DNA of 64,000 nucleotides from Escherichia coli (GTDB taxonomy: Bacteria > Pseudomonadota > Gammaproteobacteria > Enterobacterales > Enterobacteriaceae): assembly GCF_036507355.1 (NCBI RefSeq), contig NZ_AP027877.1. The stretch is one strand, 5' to 3'. This document shows, in pieces, positions 1 to 60,515 of this stretch. The notes under the pieces are model-generated. The model did no database searches. It was not told where the DNA came from and saw only the letters and a list, made by a program, of their open reading frames with translations. The position numbers and the translations under genes were made by a program. The first letter of the stretch is position 1. Each line of letters starts with the position of its first letter.

Positions 1-2045
1 GCTTCTTCGGTATCCTGCTCGATAAACTCAGTAATGCCTTTGACCAACGAGTATTCCAGACGTTTATTCACTTCCCACGAGCGCCACTCCGCCTGCTGGG
101 CGTTAGCGGTGTCGTCGGTTTTGCTGCCGCGATATTTCTCGGCAAGCTCCAGTAAACGCTCGGTGCCATCATCGCGACGGTTGAGGATCACATCCTCCAC
201 CGCGTCGCGCAGTTCAGCGGGCAGGTCGTCGTAAATCGCCAGTTGCCCGGCGTTGACAATCCCCATATCCATGCCGTTGCGGATGGCGTAGTAGAGGAAC
301 ACCGCGTGAATAGCTTCGCGCACCGGATCGTTGCCACGGAACGAGAACGAGACGTTAGAGACGCCGCCGGAAATTAGCGCGTGCGGCAGTTCGCGTTTGA
401 TGTCTTCACACGCGCCGATAAAGTCCTGCGCGTAGTTATTGTGCTCTTCAATGCCGGTGGCAACCGCGAAGATGTTCGGGTCGAAGATGATATCTTCTGG
501 CGGGAAGCCAACCTCTTCGGTGAGGATGTTGTACGCCCGACGGCAAATCTCGATTTTCCGTGCGCGGGTATCGGCCTGCCCCTGTTCGTCAAAGGCCATT
601 ACCACCACTGCCGCACCGTAACGACGCAACAATTTCGCGTGATGGATAAAAGCGTCGACGCCCTCTTTCATCGAGATAGAGTTAACAATGCCTTTGCCCT
701 GGATACACTTCAGACCTTTTTCAATGACATCCCATTTTGAGGAGTCGATCATAATCGGCACGCGAGCGATATCCGGTTCACCGGCAATCAGATTGAGAAA
801 ACGCACCATCGCCGCTTCGGCATCGAGCATCCCTTCATCCATGTTGATATCGATAATCTGCGCGCCGTTTTCCACCTGCTGACGCGCTACATCCAGCGCC
901 TCGCTGTATTTCTCTTCTTTGATCAGGCGCTTGAACTTAGCGGAACCGGTGACGTTGGTGCGTTCACCCACGTTCACAAACAGGCTATCTTCGCCAATGT
1001 TCAGCGGCTCCAGGCCGGACAAACGGCAGGCTACGGGGATTTCCGGCAGTTTGCGCGGCGCTAATCCTTCTACTGCACGACTCATCGCTGCAATATGTTG
1101 TGGCGTGGTGCCACAGCAGCCGCCGACGATATTGAGAAAACCCGCTTGCGCCCATTCACGTATCTGTTTTGCCATCGTGTCGGCGTCGAGATCGTACTCA
1201 CCAAAGGCGTTGGGTAGCCCGGCGTTCGGGTGCGCGGTGACGTAGCATTCCGCAATCCGTGACAGCTCCTGCACGTACTGGCGCAGTTCATCTGGCCCCA
1301 GCGCACAGTTCAGGCCAAAGGTCAGCGCTTCGGCGTGGCGCAATGAGTTGTAAAATGCTTCGGTGGTCTGCCCGGAGAGCGTGCGCCCGGAGGCGTCGGT
1401 GATGGTGCCGGAGATCATAATCGGCAGCTCAACGCCCAGCGCTTCAAACTCCGTTTTCACCGCAAAAACCGCCGCTTTGGCGTTAAGGGTGTCGAAAACG
1501 GTTTCAATCAGGATCAGATCCGCACCACCTTCCACCAGCGCTTTGGTGGATTCGCGATAGGCCGCCACCAGCTGGTCAAAAGTGATGTTGCGGAATGCCG
1601 GATCGTTGACGTCCGGAGAAATAGACGCCGTGCGGTTGGTCGGGCCGAGAACACCGGCAACGTAGCGCGGTTTCTCTGGCGTGCGCGCGGTCCACTCATC
1701 AGCACAGGCGCGCGCCAGTTTCGCCGCCGCAAAGTTGATTTCCGCCGACAGGGATTCCATCTGGTAATCCGCCATCGCAATGGTCGTGGAGTTGAAGGTG
1801 TTGGTTTCGATGATATCCGCACCCGCTTCAAAGTAGGCGTTGTGGATAGCGGCGATCACTTCCGGTTTACTGAGTACCAGCAGGTCGTTGTTGCCTTTGA
1901 GGTCGCATGGCCAGTCGGCAAAGCGTTCACCACGAAAATCGGCTTCGTTCAGTCGATAGCTCTGGATCATGGTGCCCATACCGCCGTCCAGCACCAGAAT
2001 ACGTTCATTTAACTGCGCACGCAGTTGTTCCACTTTGCTGCTCAC
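1..2045 (-). CDS. metH: Methionine synthase (B12-dependent), N-terminal ~680 codons; 3' part lies beyond window start
   Basis: Reverse-complement of window start translates to [39 protein letters not shown]; reverse-complement near 2045 gives [15 protein letters not shown] with GTG start. Open to window edge so absent from ORF track. Confidence 0.88.
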
Positions 2046-2243
2046 ACTTGCTCCCGACACGCTCAACCCAGATTTAATAAAAATTCAACAAACCATACTG
2101 GCATAAACGCATCAGTGGTAAAAGCGACCACCACGCAATATGAGATTTGTTCAACATTAACTCATCGGATCAGTGTGGCAACTATTGCATTACACCACAA
2201 TAAAAATGAAAATGATTTCCACGATACAGAAAAGGAGACTGTC

Positions 2244-3068
2244 ATGGTCGCACCCATTCCCGCAAAACGCGGCAGAAAACCCGCCGTTGCCACCGCACCA
2301 GCGACTGGACAGGTTCAGTCTTTAACGCGTGGGCTGAAATTACTGGAGTGGATTGCCGAATCCAATGGCAGTGTGGCTCTTACGGAACTGGCACAGCAAG
2401 CCGGATTACCTAATTCCACTACTCACCGCCTGCTAACCACGATGCAACAACAGGGCTTTGTCCGTCAGGTTGGTGAACTGGGTCACTGGGCGATCGGCGC
2501 ACATGCTTTTATGGTCGGCAGTAGCTTTCTCCAGAGCCGTAATTTGTTAGCCATTGTCCATCCTATTCTGCGCAATCTGATGGAAGAGTCTGGCGAAACG
2601 GTAAATATGGCAGTGCTGGATCATAGCGATCACGAAGCGATTATTATCGACCAGGTACAGTGTACGCATCTGATGCGTATGTCAGCCCCTATCGGCGGTA
2701 AGTTACCAATGCATGCCTCTGGTGCCGGTAAAGCTTTTTTAGCCCAACTGAGCGAAGAACAGGTGACGAAACTTCTGCATCGCAAAGGCTTACATGCCTA
2801 TACCCACGCGACGCTGGTGTCTCCTGTGCATTTAAAAGAGGACCTCGCCCAGACGCGTAAACGTGGCTATTCATTTGACGATGAAGAACATGCGCTGGGG
2901 CTTCGTTGCCTCGCGGCGTGTATTTTCGATGAACACCGCGAACCATTTGCCGCAATTTCGATTTCCGGGCCGATTTCACGTATTACCGATGATCGCGTAA
3001 CCGAGTTTGGCGCGATGGTGATTAAAGCGGCGAAGGAAGTAACGCTGGCGTATGGCGGAATGCGGTGA
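2244..3068 (+). CDS. iclR: IclR transcriptional repressor of aceBAK (274 aa)
   Basis: ORF 2025..3068 contains MVAPIPAKRGRKPAVATAPATGQVQSLTRGLKLLEWIAE; ATG at 2244 preceded by aaaggag RBS; divergent from metH. Confidence 0.93.
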   Translation: MVAPIPAKRGRKPAVATAPATGQVQSLTRGLKLLEWIAESNGSVALTELAQQAGLPNSTTHRLLTTMQQQGFVRQVGELGHWAIGAHAFMVGSSFLQSRNLLAIVHPILRNLMEESGETVNMAVLDHSDHEAIIIDQVQCTHLMRMSAPIGGKLPMHASGAGKAFLAQLSEEQVTKLLHRKGLHAYTHATLVSPVHLKEDLAQTRKRGYSFDDEEHALGLRCLAACIFDEHREPFAAISISGPISRITDDRVTEFGAMVIKAAKEVTLAYGGMR

Positions 3069-3084
3069 CATTTTCGCCTCTGAT

Positions 3085-4809
<1,725 letters not shown>

Positions 4810-4837: not shown

Positions 4838-4969
4838 GCCGGATGCGGCGTAAACGCCTTATCCAGCCTACGTTCGGCAACGGTTGTAGGCATGATAAGA
4901 CGCGCAAGCGTCGCATCAGGCATCGTGCACCGATTGCCGGATGCGGCGTAAATGCCTTATCCGGCCTAC
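4838..4969. repeat. REP/BIME cluster: three REP units (4838-4871, 4886-4921 inverted, 4936-4969) in aceA-aceK intergenic
   Basis: Two copies of gccggatgcggcgtaaa(c/t)gccttatcc(a/g)gcctac flank an inverted gtaggcatgataagacgcgcaagcgtcgcatcaggc unit; classic REP palindromes. Confidence 0.85.
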
Positions 4970-10247: not shown

Positions 10248-10367
10248 ATGCCTGGCAGTTCCCTACTCTCGCATGGGGAGACCCCACACTACCATCGGCG
10301 CTACGGCGTTTCACTTCTGAGTTCGGCATGGGGTCAGGTGGGACCACCGCGCTACGGCCGCCAGGCA
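10248..10367 (-). rRNA. rrfE: 5S ribosomal RNA
   Basis: Reverse-complement is the canonical E. coli 5S sequence (TGCCTGGCGGCCGTAGCGCGGTGGTCCCACCTGACCCCATGCCGAACTCAG...CATGCGAGAGTAGGGAACTGCCAGGCAT), 120 nt. Confidence 0.97.
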
Positions 10368-10460
10368 AATTCTGTTTTATCAGACCGCTTCTGCGTTCTG
10401 ATTTAATCTGTATCAGGCTGAAAATCTTCTCTCAATCCGCCAAAACAGCTTCGGCGTTGT

Positions 10461-13363
<2,903 letters not shown>

Positions 13364-13556
13364 TCACAACCCGAAGATGTTTCTTTCGATTCATCATCGT
13401 GTTGCGAAAATTTGAGAGACTCACGAACAACTCTCGTTGTTCAGTGTTTCAATTTTCAGCTTGATCCAGATTTTTAAAGAGCAAATATCTCAAACATCAC
13501 CCGAAGATGAGTTTTGAGATATTAAGGTCGGCGACTTTCACTCACAAACCAGCAAG

Positions 13557-13632
13557 TGGCGTCCCCTAGGGGATTCGAACCCCTGTTACCGCCGTGAAAG
13601 GGCGGTGTCCTGGGCCTCTAGACGAAGGGGAC
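13557..13632 (-). tRNA. gltV: tRNA-Glu (UUC) in 16S-23S spacer
   Basis: Reverse-complement GTCCCCTTCGTCTAGAGGCCCAGGACACCGCCCTTTCACGGCGGTAACAGGGGTTCGAATCCCCTAGGGGACGCCA, 76 nt. Confidence 0.96.
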
Positions 13633-13717
13633 GTATCAGTCTGCTTCGCAAGACGCCTTGCTTTTCACTTTCTATCAGACAATCTGTGTGAGCACTACAA
13701 AGAACGCTTCTTTAAGG

Positions 13718-15259
<1,542 letters not shown>

Positions 15260-15768: not shown

Positions 15769-15875
15769 TACAATGCGGGCGAAAAATAAGGATGCCCCGT
15801 TAGGGGCGTTAGCTGAGTTTTTCGCGAAAAATTCAGCTAACGCTCTCTGTAATAGTCAAATCCAGGGGATTTACC

Positions 15876-17465
15876 ATGCAACAACGTCGTCCAGTCCGCC
15901 GCGCTCTGCTCAGTGTTTCTGACAAAGCCGGTATCGTCGAATTCGCCCAGGCACTTTCCGCACGCGGTGTGGAGCTGCTGTCTACAGGGGGCACTGCCCG
16001 TCTGTTAGCAGAAAAAGGTCTGCCGGTAACCGAAGTTTCCGATTACACCGGTTTCCCGGAGATGATGGATGGACGCGTGAAGACCCTACATCCGAAAGTA
16101 CATGGTGGCATTCTGGGCCGTCGCGGTCAGGACGATGCCATTATGGAAGAACATCAGATCCAGCCTATCGATATGGTGGTTGTTAACCTGTATCCGTTCG
16201 CCCAGACCGTGGCCCGTGAAGGCTGCTCGCTGGAAGATGCGGTTGAGAACATCGATATCGGCGGCCCGACCATGGTGCGCTCCGCCGCTAAGAACCATAA
16301 AGATGTCGCAATCGTGGTGAAGAGCAGCGACTACGACGCCATTATTAAAGAGATGGATGCCAACGAAGGATCGCTGACGCTTGCAACCCGTTTCGACCTC
16401 GCCATCAAAGCCTTCGAACACACTGCCGCCTACGACAGCATGATTGCCAACTACTTCGGCAGCATGGTTCCGGCTTACCACGGTGAAAGCAAAGAAGCCG
16501 CCGGTCGCTTCCCACGCACGCTGAACCTGAACTTCATTAAGAAGCAGGATATGCGTTACGGCGAGAACAGCCACCAGCAGGCTGCCTTCTATATAGAAGA
16601 GAATGTGAAAGAAGCCTCCGTTGCTACCGCAACCCAGGTTCAGGGTAAAGCCCTCTCTTATAACAACATCGCCGATACCGATGCGGCGCTGGAGTGCGTG
16701 AAAGAGTTCGCCGAGCCGACATGTGTGATTGTGAAGCACGCCAACCCTTGCGGCGTGGCTATCGGCAATTCCATTCTTGATGCTTACGATCGCGCGTACA
16801 AAACCGACCCAACCTCCGCATTCGGCGGCATCATTGCCTTTAACCGCGAGCTGGATGCGGAAACCGCACAGGCCATCATTTCTCGTCAGTTTGTCGAAGT
16901 GATTATTGCGCCTTCCGCCAGCGAAGAAGCCCTGAAAATCACCGCCGCCAAGCAGAACGTACGCGTTCTGACCTGCGGTCAGTGGGGCGAGCGTGTTCCG
17001 GGTCTTGATTTCAAACGCGTGAACGGCGGTCTGCTGGTTCAGGATCGTGACCTGGGGATGGTCGGTGCGGAAGAACTGCGCGTCGTCACCCAACGTCAGC
17101 CGACCGAACAGGAACTGCGTGATGCGCTGTTCTGCTGGAAAGTGGCGAAGTTCGTGAAATCCAATGCTATCGTCTATGCCAAAAACAATATGACCATCGG
17201 TATTGGCGCGGGCCAGATGAGCCGCGTGTACTCCGCGAAAATTGCCGGTATTAAAGCTGCCGATGAAGGTCTGGAAGTGAAAGGTTCCTCTATGGCCTCC
17301 GATGCATTCTTCCCGTTTCGTGACGGTATTGATGCTGCCGCTGCCGCAGGCGTGACCTGTGTGATCCAGCCTGGCGGTTCTATTCGTGATGACGAAGTGA
17401 TTGCCGCTGCCGACGAGCACGGTATTGCAATGCTCTTCACCGATATGCGCCACTTCCGCCATTAA
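15876..17465 (+). CDS. purH: Bifunctional AICAR transformylase / IMP cyclohydrolase (529 aa)
   Basis: ORF translation [54 protein letters not shown]. Confidence 0.95.
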
Positions 17466-17476
17466 TGGAGCGACAG

Positions 17477-18766
17477 ATGAAAGTATTAGTGATTGGTAAC
17501 GGCGGGCGCGAGCACGCGCTGGCCTGGAAAGCGGCCCAGTCGCCGCTCGTTGAAACGGTTTTTGTTGCTCCGGGTAATGCAGGCACTGCACTGGAACCTG
17601 CGCTGCAAAACGTCGCCATCAATGTGACCGATATTCCGGCACTGCTGAGCTTTGCGCAGAATGAAAAAATTGACCTGACCATCGTTGGCCCGGAAGCGCC
17701 ACTGGTGATTGGCGTCGTTGACGCGTTCCGCGCAGCAGGTTTGAAAATATTCGGACCGACTGAGGGCGCCGCGCAACTCGAAGGTTCTAAAGCGTTTACC
17801 AAGGATTTCCTGGCACGCCACCACATCCCAACAGCGGAATACCAGAACTTCACCGAGATTGAGCCTGCGCTGGTGTATCTGCGCGAGAAAGGTGCACCGA
17901 TCGTTATCAAAGCAGACGGTCTGGCGGCGGGTAAAGGCGTAATCGTCGCGATGACACTCGAAGAAGCCGAAGCGGCCGTTCACGACATGCTGGCGGGTAA
18001 CGCTTTTGGCGACGCAGGTCACCGCATTGTTATCGAAGAATTCCTCGATGGCGAGGAAGCGAGCTTTATTGTGATGGTTGACGGCGAACACGTGTTACCG
18101 ATGGCCACCAGTCAGGATCATAAACGCGTGGGTGATAAGGACACCGGGCCAAACACAGGCGGAATGGGCGCTTACTCTCCTGCGCCGGTAGTGACTGATG
18201 AAGTTCATCAGCGCACGATGGAGCGCATCATCTGGCCAACCGTGAAAGGCATGGCAGCGGAAGGTAACACGTATACCGGTTTTCTGTATGCGGGCCTGAT
18301 GATCGACAAACAGGGCAATCCGAAGGTTATCGAATTCAACTGCCGCTTTGGCGATCCGGAAACCCAGCCGATTATGCTGCGCATGAAGTCCGATCTGGTT
18401 GAGCTTTGCCTGGCGGGCTGTGAAGGCAAGCTGGACGAAAAAAAATCCGAGTGGGATGAACGCGCATCGCTAGGTGTGGTGATGGCTGCGGGCGGTTATC
18501 CGGGTGATTATCGCAAGGGCGATGTGATCCACGGCCTGCCGCTGGAAGAAGTGGCAGGCGGCAAAGTGTTCCACGCGGGCACAAAACTGGCGGATGACGA
18601 GCAGGTGGTAACCAGCGGCGGGCGCGTACTGTGCGTCACCGCGCTGGGTCATACCGTGGCAGAAGCGCAGAAACGCGCCTACGCCTTAATGACCGATATC
18701 CACTGGGATGATTGCTTCTGCCGGAAAGATATCGGTTGGCGCGCCATCGAACGCGAGCAGAACTAA
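17477..18766 (+). CDS. purD: Phosphoribosylamine-glycine ligase (429 aa)
   Basis: ORF 17465..18766 contains MKVLVIGNGGREHALAWKAAQSPLVETVFVAPGNAGTA; start taken at MKVLV (ATG 17477), 12 bp after purH stop. Confidence 0.94.
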   Translation: MKVLVIGNGGREHALAWKAAQSPLVETVFVAPGNAGTALEPALQNVAINVTDIPALLSFAQNEKIDLTIVGPEAPLVIGVVDAFRAAGLKIFGPTEGAAQLEGSKAFTKDFLARHHIPTAEYQNFTEIEPALVYLREKGAPIVIKADGLAAGKGVIVAMTLEEAEAAVHDMLAGNAFGDAGHRIVIEEFLDGEEASFIVMVDGEHVLPMATSQDHKRVGDKDTGPNTGGMGAYSPAPVVTDEVHQRTMERIIWPTVKGMAAEGNTYTGFLYAGLMIDKQGNPKVIEFNCRFGDPETQPIMLRMKSDLVELCLAGCEGKLDEKKSEWDERASLGVVMAAGGYPGDYRKGDVIHGLPLEEVAGGKVFHAGTKLADDEQVVTSGGRVLCVTALGHTVAEAQKRAYALMTDIHWDDCFCRKDIGWRAIEREQN

Positions 18767-20088
18767 CGCGACAGTTTTGCCAATAGCGTTTTGCGCGTGA
18801 TCCCTAACTGACGGGCGGCTTCGGTTTTGTTGCCGCCCGTTTTCTCCAGTGCCGCCAGAATCACTTCTTTTTCGACTTCCACCAGCGGCTGAATATCCTG
18901 ACTTTGCCCCAGCGGGATCGGCGTACCGGCAATCGCCAGCGGCAGCTCGCGTTCGGAAATATATTCCCCGGTCAGCAGCACCACCGCCCGTTCCACCGCG
19001 TTTTCCAGTTCACGAATATTTCCCGGCCAGTCGTAGTGGATCAGCAAATCCATCGCCTGTGGCGTAAAGCCTTTTACCGCCTTGCGATTACGCTCGGCAA
19101 AGCGCTGAAGAAAATGGCCAGCCAGCAGAGGGATATCTTCCCTCCGTTGCCGCAGCGATGGTACTTCAATCGCCACCACATTCAGGCGATAGTAGAGATC
19201 CTGGCGAAAACGCCCGGCATTCACCTCTGCGGCAAGATCGCGATGGGTCGCCGCAATCAGCCGGACATCAACCGAGATAGTCTGGTTGCTACCGACACGC
19301 TGAACTTCGCGCTCCTGAATCGCACGCAGCAGACGCACCTGCATCATCGGCGAGATATCGCCAATTTCATCGAGAAACAGCGTGCCGCCGTCCGCCTCAA
19401 CAAAGCGCCCTTCCCGGCGTTTATCGGCTCCGGTAAACGCCCCTTTTTCGTGACCGAACAATTCAGATTCCAGCAAGGATTCGTTAAGTGCCGCACAGTT
19501 GAGCGTTACCAGCGGTTTTTCGCTACGTGCGCTACTGGCGTGAATCGCCTTGGCGACCAGCTCTTTACCGGTGCCGGAATCGCCGTGGATCAGCACCGTG
19601 GCTTCCGATGGCGCGACGAGGGAGATTTCACTGAGCAGGTGTTGCATCGCCGGGCTTTTACCGACCATACCGAACTGGCTGGCAGTCACCGCAGGTGTTT
19701 CAGCATCAATACTGTGTGTATGCGCGAGCGCCTTTTCCAGCGTCGCCTGTAGGTTATCGAAATCCAGCGGCTTGATGAGATAATCCAGCGCCCCAGTTTT
19801 CAGTGCCTCTACCGCCGTCTCGACGCTGGAGTACGCAGTCATAATCAGCACCGGAATTGCCGGGTTTAACGCTTTGATCTCTTTCAGCGTGGCGATGCCG
19901 TCCATCTCCGCCATTCGCACATCGCAAAGCACAAGATCAAAAACCTGTTCCCGCACCTGCTCCAGCGCCTGTCGCCCGCTGTTCGCCAGCGCGACGTTAT
20001 AGCCCCAGCCTCGCAGTAAAGCCTGCAAAATAGTGCAGTGGCTAATGTCATCATCCACCACCAGAATATCGATATTATCGTGCGTCAT
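18763..20088 (-). CDS. zraR: Sigma54-dependent response regulator ZraR/HydG (441 aa)
   Basis: ORF translation [44 protein letters not shown]... with [11 protein letters not shown]+ motif; ATG overlaps zraS stop (ATGA). Confidence 0.94.
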
Positions 20089-20278
20089 CCTTGTGGGTCC
20101 TTACGCGTAATATTGACCGGAAGCCAGAGGGTGAACGTTGCGCCTTTTCCCTTCTGGCTTGCGACCTGAATTGTACCACCGTGTTGTTCAACAATATTAT
20201 GCACGACCGCCAGCCCCAATCCGGTGCCTTCGGCTTTGGTGGTGAAGTACGGAGTGAAGATGGCTTCAAGCTGATCTG
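20085..20278 (-). pseudogene. zraS: zraS 3' fragment (C-terminal ~61 codons of the sensor kinase) separated from the rest by IS1
   Basis: Reverse-complement translates [61 protein letters not shown], carrying the HATPase G2 box GTGLGL; in frame with the 5' part once IS1 and one duplication copy are removed. Confidence 0.85.
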
Positions 20279-20293
20279 GGTAATGACTCCAAC

Positions 20294-20797
20294 TTATTGA
20301 TAGTGTTTTATGTTCAGATAATGCCCGATGACTTTGTCATGCAGCTCCACCGATTTTGAGAACGACAGCGACTTCCGTCCCAGCCGTGCCAGGTGCTGCC
20401 TCAGATTCAGGTTATGCCGCTCAATTCGCTGCGTATATCGCTTGCTGATTACGTGCAGCTTTCCCTTCAGGCGGGATTCATACAGCGGCCAGCCATCCGT
20501 CATCCATATCACCACGTCAAAGGGTGACAGCAGGCTCATAAGACGCCCCAGCGTCGCCATCGTGCGTTCACCGAATACGTGCGCAACAACCGTCTTCCGG
20601 AGCCTGTCATACGCGTAAAACAGCCAGCGCTGGCGCGATTTAGCCCCGACATAGCCCCACTGTTCGTCCATTTCCGCGCAGACGATGACGTCACTGCCCG
20701 GCTGTATGCGCGAGGTTACCGACTGCGGCCTGAGTTTTTTAAGTGACGTAAAATCGTGTTGAGGCCAATGCCCATAATGCGGGCTGTTGCCCGGCAT
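20294..20797 (-). CDS. insB: IS1 transposase InsB (167 aa; expressed as InsAB' fusion by -1 frameshift)
   Basis: ORF translation [64 protein letters not shown]... Confidence 0.93.
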
Positions 20798-20991
20798 CCA
20801 ACGCCATTCATGGCCATATCAATGATTTTCTGGTGCGTACCGGGTTGAGAAGCGGTGTAAGTGAACTGCAGTTGCCATGTTTTACGGCAGTGAGAGCAGA
20901 GATAGCGCTGATGTCCGGCGGTGCTTTTGCCGTTACGCACCACCCCGTCAGTAGCTGAACAGGAGGGACAGCTGATAGAAACAGAAGCCAC
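20716..20991 (-). CDS. insA: IS1 InsA (91 aa)
   Basis: ORF translation [91 protein letters not shown]. Confidence 0.93.
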
Positions 20992-21046
20992 TGGAGCACC
21001 TCAAAAACACCATCATACACTAAATCAGTAAGTTGGCAGCATCACC

Positions 21047-22238
21047 GCTGATCTGCCGCAATTCCCTTACCGCTGTCGGTAACGCTGATTTTCACGCCCG
21101 CGCCGCTTTCGCTGGCCGTCACGCTAATCACGCCATGCTGACCAATCGCCTGAATAGCATTGAGATAGAGATTCAACAGGACCTGAGTCAGCCTGTCCGG
21201 ATCGGCCTGAATTTCCGGTAATGTGTCGTTGGCGGTAAAGCGTAACTGGATCTCCCGGCTGTTTGCATCCTGGCTTACCAGCTGTAATGAGTGGTTAATC
21301 AGAGTGTTGAGGTCCACCGCCTGCAAAGCCAGATGCGTTGGCTTAACCAGTTCCAGCAGCTCGCTTACCACGCGGTTTAATCGGTCAGCTTCTTTCGCCA
21401 TCACCTGCGCCAGTTGATGCGCTTCTCCCCCTGCAGGCGCGCGCTCGGCAAAGTATTTCGCCAGTCCTTTAATCGAGGAAAGTGGGTTACGGATTTCGTG
21501 GGCAACGCCTGCCGCAAGATGCCCCAGCGCCACCAGCTTCTCTTTGCGCTTCATTTCATCTTGTAGAAGCTGGCGCGAGCGCAGATAGCGGCGATACCAG
21601 AAGAATGACAATACGCTTGCCAGCAAGACCGTCGCCAGGGCGAAGAGGATAATCAGGGTGTTTCTCTGCTCACGATCTTCGGCACTCACAATATTACTGG
21701 CGTCGAAAGCGATGAAAATTGCTTGTGGTGTCGCGGCATACTGCTGCATATGGCGCATCCGGTGCATTCCAGCAGCAAACATCGGTTGAAACTGGCGATA
21801 AATTTCCAGAACAGGCTCGCCGTCTGCGCTATCGATCCGCCGCCACACTTCTTCATCTCCCGGATGTAACTGCTGCATTTCCTGCGGGGAATAAAGCTGT
21901 TTTCCCACCATGCCGGAGTTGCTATGCATCACGATTGTTCCTTGTTCATCCGTGACCGCAAACCAACGTACTCCAGGCTGCCCGGCTATTTCTTCCAGTA
22001 AGGCCTGCTGCTGCGCATGATGCATGCGCATCCCCATGCCGACGCGCGAGCCGGATTCAAGAGCGCGAATAAGTACACTGCCTTTTTCCAGCAGCGTTTG
22101 TCTGGCGGCGGCAGTCTCGCGCCCATAATCGCGAATCACCGTCACCGCAAACAACCCTACCAGCCCAACAATGACCACGGGGAGGATCGCGCTTAACCAT
22201 TTAGCTAAGGAGTCTTTAGAACGTTGCATAAAACGCAT
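21047..22238 (-). pseudogene. zraS: zraS 5' portion (397 codons) truncated by IS1; stop codon supplied by IS1 terminal repeat
   Basis: ORF 21042..22238 (MRFMQRSKDSLAKWLSAILPVVIVGL...HEIRNPLSSIKGL...VTDSGKGIAADQR*) ends at a TGA inside the IS1 end; H-box, N-box and G1 box present, G2 box missing. Confidence 0.88.
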
Positions 22239-22269
22239 CTTCTTCTTTGCCTGTTCATCCCTTTTTACC

Positions 22270-22285
22270 AGCAGAAATCATGCCA
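22270..22285 (-). promoter_or_regulatory. Candidate sigma54 promoter for zraSR
   Basis: Minus-strand TGGCATGATTTCTGCT has GG and GC at canonical -24/-12 spacing, ~30 nt upstream of zraS start. Confidence 0.55.
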
Positions 22286-22336
22286 TCTTTTATCGCCACC
22301 GACTCTGCGCTGTAACACAAAGACTTAAGTTTCAAT

Positions 22337-22382
22337 GAGTAAAAATGACTCGCTACCCACAGCAGGCGAGTCATTTTTACTC
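22337..22382. promoter_or_regulatory. 17-bp-arm inverted repeat, probable ZraR enhancer-binding site
   Basis: gagtaaaaatgactcgc-N12-gcgagtcatttttactc, perfect inverted repeat between the divergent zraP and zraS sigma54 promoters. Confidence 0.65.
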
Positions 22383-22424
22383 GTTTATCATGCCAGATTG
22401 CCCGTCATATCAGCGTTTCGTTGT

Positions 22425-22440
22425 TGGCACGGAAGATGCA
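22425..22440 (+). promoter_or_regulatory. Sigma54 promoter for zraP
   Basis: TGGCACGGAAGATGCA matches TGGCACG-N4-TTGCA at -24/-12 spacing, 36 bp upstream of zraP ATG. Confidence 0.7.
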
Positions 22441-22475
22441 ATACCCGAAGTAAGACAACCACTGGAAGATTAACC

Positions 22476-22895
22476 ATGAAACGGAACACGAAAATTGCCC
22501 TGGTGATGATGGCGCTTTCAGCAATGGCGATGGGATCGACATCTGCATTTGCTCACGGCGGACACGGTATGTGGCAGCAAAATGCCGCGCCTTTGACCAG
22601 CGAACAACAGACAGCGTGGCAGAAAATCCATAATGACTTTTACGCTCAAAGCAGCGCACTGCAACAGCAACTGGTGACGAAGCGTTATGAATACAATGCC
22701 CTGTTAGCCGCGAACCCACCGGATAGCAGCAAAATTAACGCGGTCGCCAAAGAGATGGAGAATTTGCGTCAGTCGTTAGATGAGTTACGGGTGAAACGGG
22801 ATATTGCGATGGCTGAAGCGGGTATTCCGCGCGGTACCGGAATGGGTTACGGCGGCTGCGGTGGTGGCGGTCATATGGGTATGGGCCACTGGTAA
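22476..22895 (+). CDS. zraP: Zinc-responsive periplasmic chaperone ZraP (139 aa with signal peptide)
   Basis: ORF 22335..22895 contains MKRNTKIALVMMALSAMAMGSTSAFAHGGHGMWQQ... and Gly/His-rich C-terminus GYGGCGGGGHMGMGHW; start taken at MKRNT. Confidence 0.9.
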   Translation: MKRNTKIALVMMALSAMAMGSTSAFAHGGHGMWQQNAAPLTSEQQTAWQKIHNDFYAQSSALQQQLVTKRYEYNALLAANPPDSSKINAVAKEMENLRQSLDELRVKRDIAMAEAGIPRGTGMGYGGCGGGGHMGMGHW

Positions 22896-22896
22896 A

Positions 22897-23598
22897 TCAG
22901 AACGTTTTCTCGTTGGGTTGCCAGCGACAGAAATCAGAGTTTGCCACTAACAGTAATTGCGAACCTTCGGGCGCTTCCAGCCATGCCATGCTGACATCAA
23001 CAGAAGAGCGGCTCTGGCGGCGCTCGATATGCGCTATCGCCTGCGAATCTAAATCAGGTTTAATGGTTTGCCCTTCGCAGGTGGTCACAGTCTGTTCCAT
23101 CGCATGCCAGCGCCCCTGGCGCAGCACGACTCTCCCCTGACGTAAGGCATCGCTAATCTGGCGGATCTGATCAGCACGATAACGGTATAAATCGATTTGG
23201 TCGTTAGAAAGCTGCTGCTTTTCCCCATCGGATTCGCGTTGCATAAAGCTCAGATCGCCGCGATCGTCAAAACGCGCGCGAATATTCACCGGGGGTTTGC
23301 TGTAAACATTGATATTGATGAGCGTGAGGTTATCGCCCTGCCAGCGATACTCTCGCGTCGTGGTATCGCCACTGCGCCACGGGCTAAACACGGCAAGAAG
23401 ATGCACATTATCGCCGCTGTCTTTTCGCCAGATGCGTACCGCGCCCTGGTCTTCAGCAAATCCACTGGCGGTAAAGGGAGGAAGTGAAGAGTTGTGACTA
23501 CAAGCAGTGAGAAACAGAGCGCCAGCCAGCATCAATGATCGACGCCAGAAAGACAAAAGGGGTGAAACCACCCCTTCGTTAAAACTGTTCACTGCCAC
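22897..23598 (-). CDS. yjaH: DUF3251 protein YjaH (about 231-233 aa, predicted signal peptide)
   Basis: ORF translation MAVNSFNEGVVSPLLSFWRRSLMLAGALFLTACSHNSSLPPFTASGFAEDQG...; position between zraP and hupA. Confidence 0.8.
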   Translation of the reverse strand: MAVNSFNEGVVSPLLSFWRRSLMLAGALFLTACSHNSSLPPFTASGFAEDQGAVRIWRKDSGDNVHLLAVFSPWRSGDTTTREYRWQGDNLTLININVYSKPPVNIRARFDDRGDLSFMQRESDGEKQQLSNDQIDLYRYRADQIRQISDALRQGRVVLRQGRWHAMEQTVTTCEGQTIKPDLDSQAIAHIERRQSRSSVDVSMAWLEAPEGSQLLLVANSDFCRWQPNEKTF

Positions 23599-23604
23599 GC
23601 AATC

Positions 23605-23877
23605 TTACTTAACTGCGTCTTTCAGTGCCTTGCCAGAAACAAATGCCGGTACGTTAGCTGCGGCAATTTTGATTTCTTTACCGGTCTGCGGGTTGCGGCC
23701 AGTACGCTCAGCGCGGTGGTTCACTTTGAAGGTACCGAAACCAACCAGTTGTACAGCATCGCCTTCTTTCAGAGACTCAGTAATTGCAGCCAGAGTGGAC
23801 TCCAGAGCAGCTTTAGCCTGGGTTTTGGACAGTTCTGCTTTCTCTGCAATTACATCAATCAGTTGAGTCTTGTTCAT
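23605..23877 (-). CDS. hupA: DNA-binding protein HU-alpha (90 aa)
   Basis: ORF translation [90 protein letters not shown]. Confidence 0.96.
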
Positions 23878-24063
23878 AAGTTATCCTTACAATGTGTTTA
23901 TCGCTTGCTAAGCATCGAGTGCGACGGAAATGCCAGAATAGCACTCTCCTGCATACACGCACCGATAGCCACTTTTTTTCGCCCCCCAAATGTAGACCAG
24001 ACGGGGGGCGAAAGGGAAGACTCCAGGTACGACAAATCAGGCGTTAAATCACGTTTTCTGGTC

Positions 24064-24654
24064 TTATTGCTGAAAAATTATACCAATATTGCTCTCACCC
24101 GCCTCACGCAGGTCTGCCCTAAGGCCTTTTATCAACTCGATATCGCGTTCTTCGCACTCAGCTAAAAGTCGGAATATTTCCCACTGAATGTCCCATTCTT
24201 GCTCTACAGCTGGGTTTTCTTTGAGCTCTTCATCGCTCATTTCGCGACCAGCCTGAGTCATTTCCAGCATCGCAACGGTCGTGATGGAGGTCTTACTCAC
24301 TTCCACCGCGTGTTCGAGCGTTTCACCACTCAAACGCGAATGGACCAGTTCACTTAACGCCACGCAGGCATCGATTGCCGGATAAACGCCGTACAGATCG
24401 AAATCGTCGGCTGAAGGAATCGCTTCTTCAAATTTCTCCAGTTGGCTGTCGAAATTTACTTTTGCGTCTTTAACGGTCAGCGTTTCCCAGATGAGATCGA
24501 GAATACGACGGTAAATTTGCCCATCACCAAAACCGGTTTGCTGGCAGAACATGGCGTAATTGGGGTACATGCGTTCGCATAAGCAAGCCATGAAAGTGAC
24601 ATGCTGCCAGCTTTCCAGGCGCTCCAGACGCAGATGAATTGGGTTTTGTAACAT
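24064..24654 (-). CDS. yjaG: DUF416 protein YjaG (196 aa)
   Basis: ORF translation MLQNPIHLRLERLESWQHVTFMACLCERMYPNYAMFCQQTGFGDGQIYRRILD... Confidence 0.85.
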   Translation of the reverse strand: MLQNPIHLRLERLESWQHVTFMACLCERMYPNYAMFCQQTGFGDGQIYRRILDLIWETLTVKDAKVNFDSQLEKFEEAIPSADDFDLYGVYPAIDACVALSELVHSRLSGETLEHAVEVSKTSITTVAMLEMTQAGREMSDEELKENPAVEQEWDIQWEIFRLLAECEERDIELIKGLRADLREAGESNIGIIFQQ

Positions 24655-24696
24655 GTTGAGTTCTCAAATACGGAAATTATCCGCAGTTTACCTGAA

Positions 24697-25368
24697 TTAG
24701 GGCTGATTTGCTGTATAGCGCACGAACGCCGGACGTTCCGAGGCCACCGCGTCCGCCCAGCGCGTTGGCTCCGGCAGACGATAGCCTTTCATGCAGCGTT
24801 GTACCCACGCCAGCGCGCTGTCCACGCTGACCCGATGGCCGGTAGCGATAAACAACGGGTTACAGCGCGCTTTGCTGCGCCAGACCCAGGCCAGCTGCTC
24901 GCCTTTATCCATCAGTGGGGCCAGCGCGCCCGGTTCGCTGGAGAGCGGTTCGAATTTACCGCATAGTCGTTTTTTCGCTACGCCAATGGTCGGCACATCC
25001 ACCAGCAAACCAAAATGGCTGGCAACGCCAAGACGGCGAGGATGCGAGATCCCATGACCATCGACAAACACTAAATCCGGCTTTTGTGACAGCATCTCCC
25101 ACGCTGCCAGCAGCGCAGGATATTCGCGGAAGGAAAGAAAACCTGGAATGTAAGGCATGGTGGTGGCGATACGAGCCACTTTATACTCCACCAGCTCAAG
25201 CGAGGGGTATTTCAGCAGCACCATCGCCGCTCGCGTCACTTCTCCGCCCTGCTCAAACCCGACATCGGCTCCGGCGATCAGATCCGGCGGATCCTTATCG
25301 AGTCGATCCTCGCGGATCACAGAAGAAGCCAGTTCGATTTGTTGAGCGCGTAATGACGCGAGATCCAT
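24697..25368 (-). CDS. nfi: Endonuclease V (223 aa)
   Basis: ORF translation [87 protein letters not shown]. Confidence 0.92.
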
Positions 25369-25377
25369 AATCGCTCC

Positions 25378-26442
25378 TTAGCGGTGATACTGTTCAGACA
25401 ATCGATGCACTGCCTCCACGAACACGCCAGCATGTTCTGGCGGCACATCCTGATGAATGCCGTGACCAAGGTTAAAGACATGACCTTCGCCGTGACCGAA
25501 ACCTGCAAGTATAGTCGCTACTTCTTCTTCAATGCGAGCAGGCGGCGCGTACAGCATCGACGGATCCATATTACCCTGCAACGCGACTTTATTGCCCACA
25601 CGGCGGCGCGCATCGGCGATGTCCGTTGTCCAGTCGAGGCCCAGCGCATCGCAACCGGTTTCTGCCATGGCTTCCAGCCACTGTCCGCCGCCTTTGGTAA
25701 ACAGCGTGACCGGTACGCGGCGACCGTCGTTTTCACGCAGTAAACCATCAACAATTTTATGCATGTAATAAAGCGAGAACTGTTGATAATCGCGCCCGGT
25801 AAGCACGCCGCCCCAGGTGTCGAAAATCATCACAGCCTGAGCACCGGCTTTAATCTGCGCATTCAGATACAAAGTGACGCTTTTCGCCAGTTTATCGAGT
25901 AGAGCGTGCAGCGCCTGCGGATCGGCATACATCATTTTTTTGATCACGGTGAACGCTTTGCTGCTGCCGCCTTCCACCATGTAGGTCGCCAGCGTCCACG
26001 GGCTGCCGGAAAAACCAATCAGCGGCACTTCGCCTTTCAGTTCGCGACGAATGGTACGCACCGCGTTCATCACGTACCCCAGTTCATCTTCCGGGTCCGG
26101 AATTGGCAGTTTATCGACGTCGGCTTTGCAGGTGACTGGCGAGGTAAAACGCGGACCTTCTCCGGCTTCAAAATAGAGCCCTAACCCCATCGCGTCCGGC
26201 ACGGTGAGGATATCGGAAAAGAGGATCGCCGCATCCAGCGGGTAGCGACGCAGCGGTTGCAAAGTCACTTCGCACGCCAGCTCGGCGTTTTTGCACAGCG
26301 ACATAAAATCGCCTGCCTGGGCGCGCGTGGCTTTATATTCCGGTAGATAGCGACCCGCCTGGCGCATCATCCATACTGGAGTGACATCAACGGGCTGGCG
26401 CAGCAGCGCCCGCAGATAACGATCGTTTTTAAGTTCGGTCAT
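25378..26442 (-). CDS. hemE: Uroporphyrinogen decarboxylase (354 aa)
   Basis: ORF translation [64 protein letters not shown]. Confidence 0.95.
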
Positions 26443-27826: not shown

Positions 27827-27879
27827 GTTCTGCGCTGTTAACGCGTAATTTACATTCAACGCCCCGTTTGTGGGGGCTA

Positions 27880-29954
<2,075 letters not shown>

Positions 29955-33424: not shown

Positions 33425-33790
33425 GACGGAATGTAAGGACGTAAATTTATTCCGAGCCGCTACGGAAGATGAAAAACGCAAGGTTGTTGAAAGCGTTGTG
33501 TTTTTTTATGGTAGTGCCGTCAGCAGGAATGTTGTCCAGGGCGAAAAGCTTCTTCCTCGTTTCGCCCTGCCTTTCTTAAAAATTCCGTAATGCAAAGTCT
33601 GAAGCCATCGCCTGTTGAGCAATGAAAGAGATCTGATTGTAAGAGAGTAAATACTCAACTATGATAGAGACGAAAATAAGAACACATGTTCTCATCTTCC
33701 AGGATGCAGCAGACTGAAGAAATTCAGACATCCCGCAACCTGCGATTATCGCAAGGTCAAGGCAAAGTCCGGTAATGGCGTTCTGAATAC

Positions 33791-33840
33791 CAGAGATAAT
33801 TCTCTGGCGAAACCCACCTTAAGGTGGGTTTTGTTATTTT
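33791..33840 (+). terminator. Tandem hairpins with plus-strand intrinsic-terminator signature at 3' end of thiH-htrC intergenic
   Basis: ccagagataattctctgg hairpin followed by aaacccaccttaaggtgggttttgttatttt (stem plus T-run on plus strand); overlaps htrC stop on the opposite strand. Confidence 0.5.
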
Positions 33841-43160: not shown

Positions 43161-43194
43161 CGCAAAAAGGCTGGTGACTAAAAAGTCACCAGCC
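43161..43194 (-). terminator. rplL-rpoB intergenic attenuator hairpin
   Basis: Minus-strand GCTGGTGACTTTTTAGTCACCAGCCTTTTTGCG; a second hairpin cagcctgatttctcaggctg lies at 43196-43215, just after rplL. Confidence 0.7.
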
Positions 43195-43233
43195 ATCAGC
43201 CTGATTTCTCAGGCTGCAACCGGAAGGGTTGGC

Positions 43234-52115: not shown

Positions 52116-52235
52116 ATGCCTGGCAGTTCCCTACTCTCGCATGGGGAGACCCCACACTACCATCGGCGCTACGGCGTTTCACTTCTGAGTTCGGCATGGG
52201 ATCAGGTGGGACCACCGCGCTACGGCCGCCAGGCA
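52116..52235 (-). rRNA. rrfB: 5S ribosomal RNA
   Basis: Canonical 5S sequence on minus strand; differs from the rrfE copy at one position (gggatcagg here, ggggtcagg in rrfE). Confidence 0.97.
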
Positions 52236-52328
52236 AATTCTGTTTTATCAGACCGCTTCTGCGTTCTGATTTAATCTGTATCAGGCTGAAAATCTTCTCT
52301 CAATCCGCCAAAACAGCTTCGGCGTTGT

Positions 52329-55231
<2,903 letters not shown>

Positions 55232-55424
55232 TCACAACCCGAAGATGTTTCTTTCGATTCATCATCGTGTTGCGAAAATTTGAGAGACTCACGAACAACT
55301 CTCGTTGTTCAGTGTTTCAATTTTCAGCTTGATCCAGATTTTTAAAGAGCAAATATCTCAAACATCACCCGAAGATGAGTTTTGAGATATTAAGGTCGGC
55401 GACTTTCACTCACAAACCAGCAAG

Positions 55425-55500
55425 TGGCGTCCCCTAGGGGATTCGAACCCCTGTTACCGCCGTGAAAGGGCGGTGTCCTGGGCCTCTAGACGAAGGGGAC
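55425..55500 (-). tRNA. gltT: tRNA-Glu (UUC) in 16S-23S spacer
   Basis: Same 76-nt tRNA-Glu sequence as in rrnE. Confidence 0.96.
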
Positions 55501-55585
55501 GTATCAGTCTGCTTCGCAAGACGCCTTGCTTTTCACTTTCTATCAGACAATCTGTGTGAGCACTACAAAGAACGCTTCTTTAAGG

Positions 55586-57127
<1,542 letters not shown>

Positions 57128-60149: not shown

Positions 60150-60390
60150 TAAAGCATCCACAATAGAAGAAGGATGCCGCAGGTTTCATCAATATTACGC
60201 GATGATGAGAACCAGATGCGACGTTGGCCGGCAGGTCTTCGGGCTTGGAGGGGTATCTAAGATACTAAGAGATGATGACTTCCCACCGAATGGCAGTGTC
60301 CGCATAACGCAATCATCGCACCTTTCCTTACCGCTGCGCGTCAGCTCCAGATTCGCACTGGATTCCCTATTAACTCACAGGACCGGCAAG
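60150..60390 (-). promoter_or_regulatory. Cobalamin (AdoCbl) riboswitch in btuB leader
   Basis: Minus-strand leader contains the B12-box AAGCCCGAAGACCTGCCGGCC and upstream GGTGCGATGATTGCGTTATGCGGACACTGCCATTCGGTGGGAAGTCATCATC elements ahead of the btuB start. Confidence 0.85.
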
Positions 60391-60515
60391 TGGATGCTAC
60401 AGGTTGTAACAAGTTACTGTCCAGACGTAGCTCACAAATAGGAATTCATCAAGATCTGGACATCTGATGAGCAATCCCTACAATCGCCGCGTACTTTAAT
60501 TTTTCAGGATACATC

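Follow-up and report, generated by a model that had tools for sequence, protein, structure and literature searches.

ZraPSR (HydHG) of Escherichia coli and Salmonella is a zinc-responsive envelope-stress two-component system. Classic IS1 was first described on plasmid R100; the IS1A and IS1E elements of K-12 belong to the same family, and the polarity of IS1 on distal genes is classical knowledge of this element. In the locus that we describe here, an IS1 lies within zraS: it is the one insertion sequence of the 64-kb stretch of E. coli DNA that we analysed (hereafter, the window), in which there is no other obvious pseudogene. The locus shares with the described ZraPSR systems a zraP that is divergent from zraS-zraR, identical sigma-54 motifs, the intergenic palindrome, and full-length matches to the NCBIfam equivalogs; it differs from them in that its zraS is interrupted.

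The genes on either side of zraS are intact. zraP (22476-22895, plus strand) encodes a protein of 139 aa that matches the NF008584 ZraP model at 279.5 bits (cutoff 200). The sigma-54-dependent response regulator gene zraR (18763-20088, minus strand), now downstream of IS1, encodes 441 aa that align along the entire NF007689 model (1-441/441, 993 bits, cutoff 760); receiver, AAA+ sigma-54 activation and HTH_8 domains are given in the Pfam list of the identical protein, and this ZraR is the same as that of relatives in which zraS is intact. A pair of 20-nt inverted repeats occupies the zraP-zraS intergenic region (22334-22385); it is presumed to be the ZraR-binding enhancer, following Leonhartsberger et al. 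2001. The zraSR sigma-54 promoter motif (ATGGCATGATTTCTGCT) is at 22270-22286 on the minus strand and that of zraP (TTGGCACGGAAGATGCA) is at 22424-22440 on the plus strand; both are of the GG-N10-GC type (-24/-12) and exactly match the sites that sigma-54 ChIP-seq identified for zraSR and zraP in K-12 (PMC4591121), which are both among the direct targets of ZraR (PMC7657598).

The inserted element is a complete, 768-bp IS1 (20279-21046, minus strand), flanked on each side by a perfect copy of GCTGATCTG. Its length and its imperfect, ~23-bp terminal inverted repeats starting GGT(A/G)ATG are those of the IS1 family: the right repeat, IRR (20279-20301), is a plus-strand match, GGTAATGACTCCAACTTATTGAT, and the left repeat, IRL (21024-21046), is a minus-strand match, GGTGATGCTGCCAACTTACTGAT. 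These termini account for both matches to the IS1-end motif in the window, where shuffled sequences lead us to expect 0. Within the element, insA (20716-20991, minus strand), recognised from the ORF list and from an analysis of the IS1 frames, encodes the 91-aa repressor of the IS1 promoter PIS1. The insB' frame (20294-20797, minus strand) is expressed solely as an InsAB' fusion, via a programmed -1 frameshift at the A6C site (AAAAAAC; 20734-20740, minus strand), which is position 307 of IS1 in the IRL-to-IRR orientation, the window coordinates having been converted by hand from that position. Translation of the element through this shift yields an InsAB' of 232 aa, which matches NF033558, ‘IS1 family transposase’, with E = 6.9e-73 and 244.8 bits (cutoff 100). 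Both the ORFs and the two ends of this copy are intact. It is identical to K-12 IS1A at 765 of 768 nt, leaving three point differences, and, among the matches listed from 5,426 E. coli genomes, the closest copy carries an IS1A-family annotation and shares 99.9% identity with it.

An earlier note, made from the letters of this DNA, had described a complete IS1 within a perfect 9-bp repeat, the footprint of a simple transposition; each of its coordinates for the element and the repeat is borne out. The two repeat copies are at 20270-20278 and 21047-21055, and one junction of the element reads GCTGATCTG|GGTAATGAC. Deleting IS1 together with one repeat copy restores, as had also been claimed, an in-frame gene, of 1377 nt and 458 aa, and its product has the same sequence as the intact ZraS of one related locus, L003. 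That locus is among four with an identical ZraR (L002-L005; relatives in the lineage are GCA_905398585.1, GCA_047852605.1, GCA_016660925.1 and SRR17480487), all of which carry an uninterrupted zraS of 458 codons within flanks that are 99.95-100% identical to those of the window over ~8.3 kb. At the empty site of these relatives the 9-mer is present as a single copy, and the two alignment blocks overlap by exactly 9 bp; L003 differs from the window by only 2 SNPs, one of them synonymous within zraR. We conclude that this is a simple, real and recent transposition of IS1 into zraS, because relatives with near-identical flanks retain both the single-9-mer empty site and an identical 458-aa ZraS.

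The earlier note had also proposed a comparison with other genomes to see whether the insertion is strain-specific, and we have made it. Over 25 kb, the closest complete E. coli genome shares 99.3% identity with the window. When 5,426 complete E. coli genomes were searched with a 200-nt junction query, no match covered >=80% of the query; there were half-length matches alone, to IS1 or to zraS. A 34-nt junction sequence is absent both from the GTDB species-representative genomes and from the JGI metagenome contigs. An exact-sequence look-up of the truncated, 398-aa ZraS returned no record, which says little since gene calling seldom includes pieces of pseudogenes, and a literature search that paired zraS with IS1 or with pseudogene yielded no description of this allele. 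On the evidence of the collections searched, the insertion is specific to this strain.

The gene that was hit is of an ordinary kind: the underlying zraS allele is the majority allele in E. coli, although it encodes 458 rather than the 465 aa of K-12 ZraS, with ~60% identity in the periplasmic domain and 85% over the whole protein. Rejoined, the protein matches NF007688 over residues 1-457 (883 bits, cutoff 479), and zraR and zraP flank the gene. As it stands, the truncated zraS ORF (21042-22238, minus strand) encodes 397 ZraS residues plus one Arg, and these align (protein 1-397) with profile positions 1-399/460; the C-terminus reads ...VTDSGKGIAADQR*, with a TGA stop (21042-21044) that is supplied by the IRL and so lies inside the IS1 end, where the earlier note had put it. 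The break, after residue 397 (codon 397/398), falls within HATPase_c (residues 346-450 by Pfam). The periplasmic sensor, the transmembrane segments, HisKA (238-300, with H247 in HEIRNPL) and the N and G1 boxes are retained; the F box (402-409), the G2 box (GTGLGL, 412-417) and the C-terminal half of HATPase_c are lost. The lost parts lie on the orphaned 3' fragment (20085-20278, minus strand; codons 395-458 plus the stop), in agreement with the earlier placing of the GTGLGL ATP-lid motif and with the Pfam boundaries. Translation of this fragment in frame 2 ends PQG*, and no start codon occurs in the frame before a TTG or GTG ~40 codons in; none is usable. The N, G1, F and G2 boxes of a complete kinase are therefore not on one polypeptide here. 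Because the truncated ZraS is without F and G2 boxes and without the second half of HATPase_c, we infer from the sequence that it cannot be a kinase.

What might follow for the pathway? We think it very probable that an IS1A-type IS1 inserted into a normal zraS, cutting ZraS in the middle of HATPase_c, and that the ZraPSR autoregulatory loop collapses as a result. An active IS1A-type copy would have transposed into codon 397/398 of zraS, duplicating the 9-bp target. With ZraS ending just past the G1 box, there would be no proper ATP binding and no autophosphorylation, and ZraR would never be phosphorylated by its cognate kinase. The element does separate zraR from the zraSR sigma-54 promoter, as the earlier note had it, and would interpose 768 bp of RNA that is for the most part untranslated; it would also undo the translational coupling of zraR to zraS at the overlap of their start and stop (ATGA), which we find at 20085-20088 as previously described. 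Since the zraSR promoter needs phosphorylated ZraR, and the kinase would be lost, the loop should collapse: zraR would be reduced to a trickle from a weak, InsA-repressed IS1 promoter, and zraP would no longer be inducible by zinc or envelope stress. The ZraPSR pathway is most likely silent; polarity on zraR and the loss of zraP induction we infer. The case for polarity draws on the classical knowledge of IS1, given that a terminator scan of the minus strand from 19900-22500 found no intrinsic terminator-like site, and that a C/G-ratio heuristic for Rho loading gave no clear signal on the IS1 sense strand (<1 across most of insB). Some considerations weigh against complete silence: acetyl phosphate or a non-cognate kinase could in principle phosphorylate ZraR; the zraR ATG has its own Shine-Dalgarno-like AAGGA ~9 nt upstream (read by eye), which makes uncoupled translation feasible; and some zraR mRNA is possible, given that transcripts can run through IS1 in the sense direction of insAB' (PMC12428005).

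These last two points bear equally on the idea that the regulator has been decoupled, such that read-through from IS1, or a hybrid promoter at its end, gives constitutive, low, sigma-54-independent expression of a zraR that is open to cross-talk. We consider this unlikely. It is true that insA and insB are on the minus strand together with zraS and zraR, the shared orientation that the earlier note had reported, that zraR is intact and the same as in relatives, and that reporters with a downstream lacZ show measurable transcription across insAB' (PMC12428005). However, the single sigma-70-like site in 19900-22500 is PIS1 itself, the promoter in the IRL (CTGCCA-16-TATGAT; 21012-21039, minus strand), which sits where the literature places it and is described as having extremely low activity, under repression by InsA (PMC12428005). 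The 600-bp termini of IS1 gave no downstream reporter signal, and the context-dependent half-promoter reported at the 5' (IRL) terminus (PMC5526668) lies here on the end that faces away from zraR. At the IRR/zraS junction, the same scan (19900-22500) finds no sigma-70-like outward promoter; the closest candidate that we could discern by eye, TTGGAG-17-TTGAAG, agrees at 3/6 + 3/6 positions. With PIS1 so weak and repressed, the IRR junction devoid of such a site, and the sole promoter further upstream being sigma-54-dependent and reliant on active ZraR, the earlier note's proposal of zraR expression by IS1 read-through looks weak. Moreover, any ZraR that was made would mostly stay inactive for want of its cognate kinase.

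That loss of the envelope-stress response was selected in the niche of this strain, as opposed to the insertion being neutral and transient, we regard as quite unlikely. The remainder of the zra locus is without decay, as selection might predict, and a zraS point mutation has arisen under metal-surface selection; that mutation, E145D, is the sole co-mention of zraS and IS1 that we found in the literature (PMC11960088). Against selection, the insertion was seen only once, zraS is intact in the closest relatives, and no parallel insertions were found among the 5,426 complete E. coli genomes. IS1 inserts in E. coli at a rate of ~1.2e-4 per genome per generation; this background suffices for one hit, and an insertion of this kind is thus to be expected as part of it.

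The truncated ZraS may itself be other than null: as a kinase-less phosphatase, or a dominant-negative partner, it would keep ZraR dephosphorylated. The stub does keep its sensor, its membrane anchor and a HisKA/DHp domain with the H-E-x-x-N motif (238-300, H247), and in EnvZ the DHp domain is still a phosphatase when taken by itself. We nevertheless hold this to be improbable: half of a Bergerat-fold domain likely misfolds and is degraded, the driving promoter needs phosphorylated ZraR and therefore little of the protein would be made, and, with no kinase acting on ZraR, there would be nothing to dephosphorylate. Far-fetched, in our judgement, is a composite of these readings, namely a selected allele in which a DHp-bearing stub serves as a constitutive phosphatase or decoy while IS1 supplies low, constitutive zraR; were it true, the ZraR pool would answer only to cross-talk or acetyl phosphate. 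Finally, we dismiss as having next to no probability an assembler's misplacing of an IS1 copy in zraS: most E. coli carry multiple copies of IS1 (the median is 11 places per genome) and the junction was found in none of the collections searched, but a misassembly would neither make a perfect 9-bp duplication of a single-copy empty-site sequence nor set both exact IS1 termini at that duplication, and the window resolves two full rRNA operons, suggesting a long-read or finished assembly.

With the collapsed loop as the preferred reading, zraS in this genome should be annotated as an IS-disrupted pseudogene. The strain is predicted to be defective in the induction of zraP by zinc and by envelope stress, and its tolerance to envelope-damaging drugs is possibly slightly lower. 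The zraS::IS1 insertion is also a clean, lineage-private marker that is usable for strain tracking. Nothing new is learned on IS1 or on two-component signalling; the value lies in the annotation and in the prediction of phenotype.

This is an ordinary, strain-specific IS1 knockout, an instance of already-known biology and not a new kind of element. It resembles the IS1A and IS1E of K-12 in its 768 bp, its terminal inverted repeats, its insA/A6C/insB' layout and its 9-bp target duplication, and is set apart from them by the three point differences from IS1A and by an insertion site in zraS that is not seen elsewhere. In its position, it recalls the classical polar mutations that IS1 caused in the gal and lac operons (1970s): IS1 again disrupts a promoter-proximal gene, and a drop in expression of the distal gene is again expected. 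In contrast to gal and lac, the distal gene here encodes the activator that the zraSR promoter needs, and the effect should be self-reinforcing.

The window carries zraS in two pieces, with a complete IS1 between them and zraR downstream. Within the interval 18600-22800, the minus strand carries zraR (18763-20088, from the ORF listing), a zraS 3' piece (20085-20278), IS1 (20279-21046) and the truncated ORF that constitutes the zraS 5' part (21042-22238, also from the ORF listing), and zraP (22476-22895, plus strand) is divergent from zraS. When IS1 and one repeat copy are deleted, the pieces rejoin in frame, as the earlier note had proposed, to form a 1377-nt gene; its 458-aa product gives a full-length hit to the ZraS equivalog NF007688 (883 bits, cutoff 479), and this match, together with synteny, identifies the interrupted gene as zraS.

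Length, ends, gene layout with the frameshift site and transposase family all identify the inserted element as IS1, and so does its 9-bp duplication, of which the empty site has one copy. By script, two copies of the 9-mer GCTGATCTG (20270-20278 and 21047-21055) enclose exactly 768 bp, which bears out all coordinates claimed for a complete element between perfect repeats. Both ends of the 768-bp stretch are IS1 terminal inverted repeats; the 64-kb window has no others (shuffles expect 0), and 20279-21046 is its sole IS1 copy. Read from the left (IRL) to the right (IRR) terminal repeat, the element encodes a 91-aa insA, an AAAAAAC frameshift site (position 307) and, after a -1 shift, a 232-aa InsAB' fusion that scores 244.8 bits against NCBIfam NF033558 'IS1 family transposase' (cutoff 100). 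Three substitutions in 768 positions (at IS1 positions 278, 444 and 486) separate it from K-12 IS1A; IS1B, IS1C and IS1D each show 10 differences, and IS1F shows 74. The E. coli genome collection offers no exact copy among its highest-ranking matches, which carry the annotation 'IS1-like element IS1A family' and reach 99.9% identity.

The history of the event can be read from relatives with an empty site. An exact-sequence look-up of the window's ZraR returned seven contigs, and the four listed (from GCA_905398585.1, GCA_047852605.1, GCA_016660925.1 and SRR17480487) all carry an uninterrupted 458-aa zraS. In BLASTN, the window aligns with these loci in two blocks of 99.95-100% identity that share exactly 9 bp on the relatives' side and omit exactly the 768-bp IS1; the empty site reads ...GCGGCAGATCAGCTTGAAGCC..., with the 9-mer present once. 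One of these loci, L003, encodes a ZraS identical to the rejoined product. Over ~8.3 kb, no more than two SNPs set it apart from the window: one at 16088 and one at 20011, the latter a synonymous change in zraR. This empty-site comparison excludes a composite rearrangement and makes misassembly very unlikely; the single-copy 9-mer and near-identical flanks support instead the simple transposition already suggested. The insertion is also young, because secondary decay is absent from both zraS fragments, from zraR and zraP, and from the promoters.

Pfam assigns residues 238-300 of ZraS to HisKA and residues 346-450 to HATPase_c. The H box (247-253), N box (354-364) and G1 box (388-393) precede the break, which falls after residue 397; beyond it, on the orphan 3' fragment as previously noted, are the F box (402-409) and G2 (GTGLGL, 412-417). 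The truncated ORF ends ...AADQR, its Arg codon and TGA spanning the junction between zraS and the IRL (GG/TGA), so that the stop does come from the IS1 end. The truncated protein thus stops 52 residues into a Bergerat-fold domain of ~105 residues; missing from it are the F and G2 boxes together with the ATP lid that lies between these two. A HisKA/HATPase_c kinase cut in this way neither binds nor positions ATP; autophosphorylation would therefore be lost, as we can safely infer, and the missing motifs support the earlier view that the kinase is very likely inactive. Translation of the orphan fragment is not expected, because in the zraS frame its first possible start (TTG or GTG) lies ~40 codons in. 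The zraS stop and zraR start overlap as ATGA, as had been stated and as a script verified, and the insertion deprives this overlap of upstream ribosome traffic.

Polarity of IS1 on distal genes is classical, and the layout confirms that the element cuts zraR off from its sigma-54 promoter. Such a promoter requires an activated enhancer-binding protein; with the kinase lost this activator is missing, so transcription into IS1 from upstream should be minimal. The zraSR motif (22270-22286, minus strand) is itself intact and, like that of zraP (22424-22440, plus strand), is identical to the K-12 ChIP-seq site (PMC4591121); a 20-nt inverted repeat lies between the two. ChIP-exo and knockout RNA-seq identify zraSR and zraP as direct targets of ZraR (PMC7657598). 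The earlier note also held that read-through from IS1 could still express zraR: this is possible in principle because transcription can cross insAB' (PMC12428005), but we downgrade it, given a weak, repressed IS1 promoter and the finding of no outward one at the junction. A promoter scan within IS1 found solely the element's own IRL promoter (21039-21012), described as 'extremely weak' and InsA-repressed (PMC12428005). In a reporter study, 600-bp IS1 termini gave no downstream expression, the sole positive being a context-dependent half-promoter at the IS1 5' terminus (PMC5526668), which in the window faces away from zraR. The promoter scan reported nothing at the IRR junction, where the best hexamer pair by eye is TTGGAG-17-TTGAAG (3/6 and 3/6). 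As for computational signs of IS1 polarity, a minus-strand scan found no intrinsic terminator, and a Rho-site heuristic run along IS1 gave no decisive signal. We expect zraR read-through to be slight, and of little consequence without the kinase. The net prediction is that the ZraPSR response would be off and zraP would not be inducible by zinc.

Separately, the periplasmic sensor domain of zraS (window 21640-22130; compared with 1927-3324 of the K-12 locus L001) is dimorphic across E. coli. The window-type allele (>=95% identity) occurs in 4,183 complete genomes versus 1,236 for the K-12 type, whose DNA is 60-80% identical to it and partly unalignable; most work on ZraS has thus relied on the minority form, that of K-12. 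The two proteins (458 and 465 aa, a 7-residue difference) are 85% identical overall, nearly all differences falling in residues ~41-190. Old recombination, or diversifying selection on a ligand- or ZraP-binding domain, may account for this dimorphism.

Of the neighbouring features, a mechanical 186-aa ORF (22335-22895, plus strand) is an in-frame upstream extension of zraP across the ZraR-site palindrome and sigma-54 promoter; the true start is the ATG at 22476, from which a 139-aa protein is read that matches ZraP over its full length. In L003, a 42-aa ORF has been called between zraP and zraS and is most likely spurious. Two complete minus-strand rRNA operons (10250-15259 and 52118-57127) each have a tRNA-Glu(UUC) spacer and a StyR-44 match upstream of 23S, and the two score identically in Rfam for 16S as well as for 23S. 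Their neighbours (purH; murB/murI) mark them as rrnE and rrnB. That both are fully resolved suggests a finished or long-read assembly. Rfam also finds TPP (27879-27979, before thiC) and cobalamin (60213-60402, before btuB) riboswitches, sroH (33672-33832), the rplJL-rpoBC leader element 'P26' (43168-43229) and REP-derived naRNA4 (4889-4966): all regulatory RNAs expected for this chromosomal region are present, with nothing unusual among them.

As to whether the insertion is strain-specific, a question raised in the earlier note, the junction was absent from every collection searched: a 200-nt left-junction query found no place covering >=80% in 5,426 complete E. coli genomes, and searches with a 34-nt junction string gave no match in a set of one genome per GTDB species or in JGI metagenome contigs. 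A literature search found no published report of IS1 in zraS. The lineage, which may be a sparsely sampled E. coli clade or a Shigella-type one, has no close representative among the 5,426 complete genomes, the nearest reaching 99.3% identity over 25 kb (21056-46000); the four relatives with the empty site, draft assemblies or SRA runs, reach 99.95-100% over 8 kb (15800-25400). IS1 itself occurs in 4,970 of these complete genomes (median 11 places per genome), and its measured insertion rate in E. coli is ~1.2e-4 per genome per generation (PMC5009759), a background rate that predicts just such a private insertion in a non-essential gene. For annotation, zraS should be treated as a pseudogene with a predicted ZraPSR-null phenotype, and the insertion can serve as a strain marker. 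The earlier observation is confirmed and its interpretation supported, read-through excepted. The sole new fact is the particular insertion site, absent from all searched collections; nothing in the event departs from known IS1 behaviour, and it is of one kind with the classical polar mutations caused by IS1.
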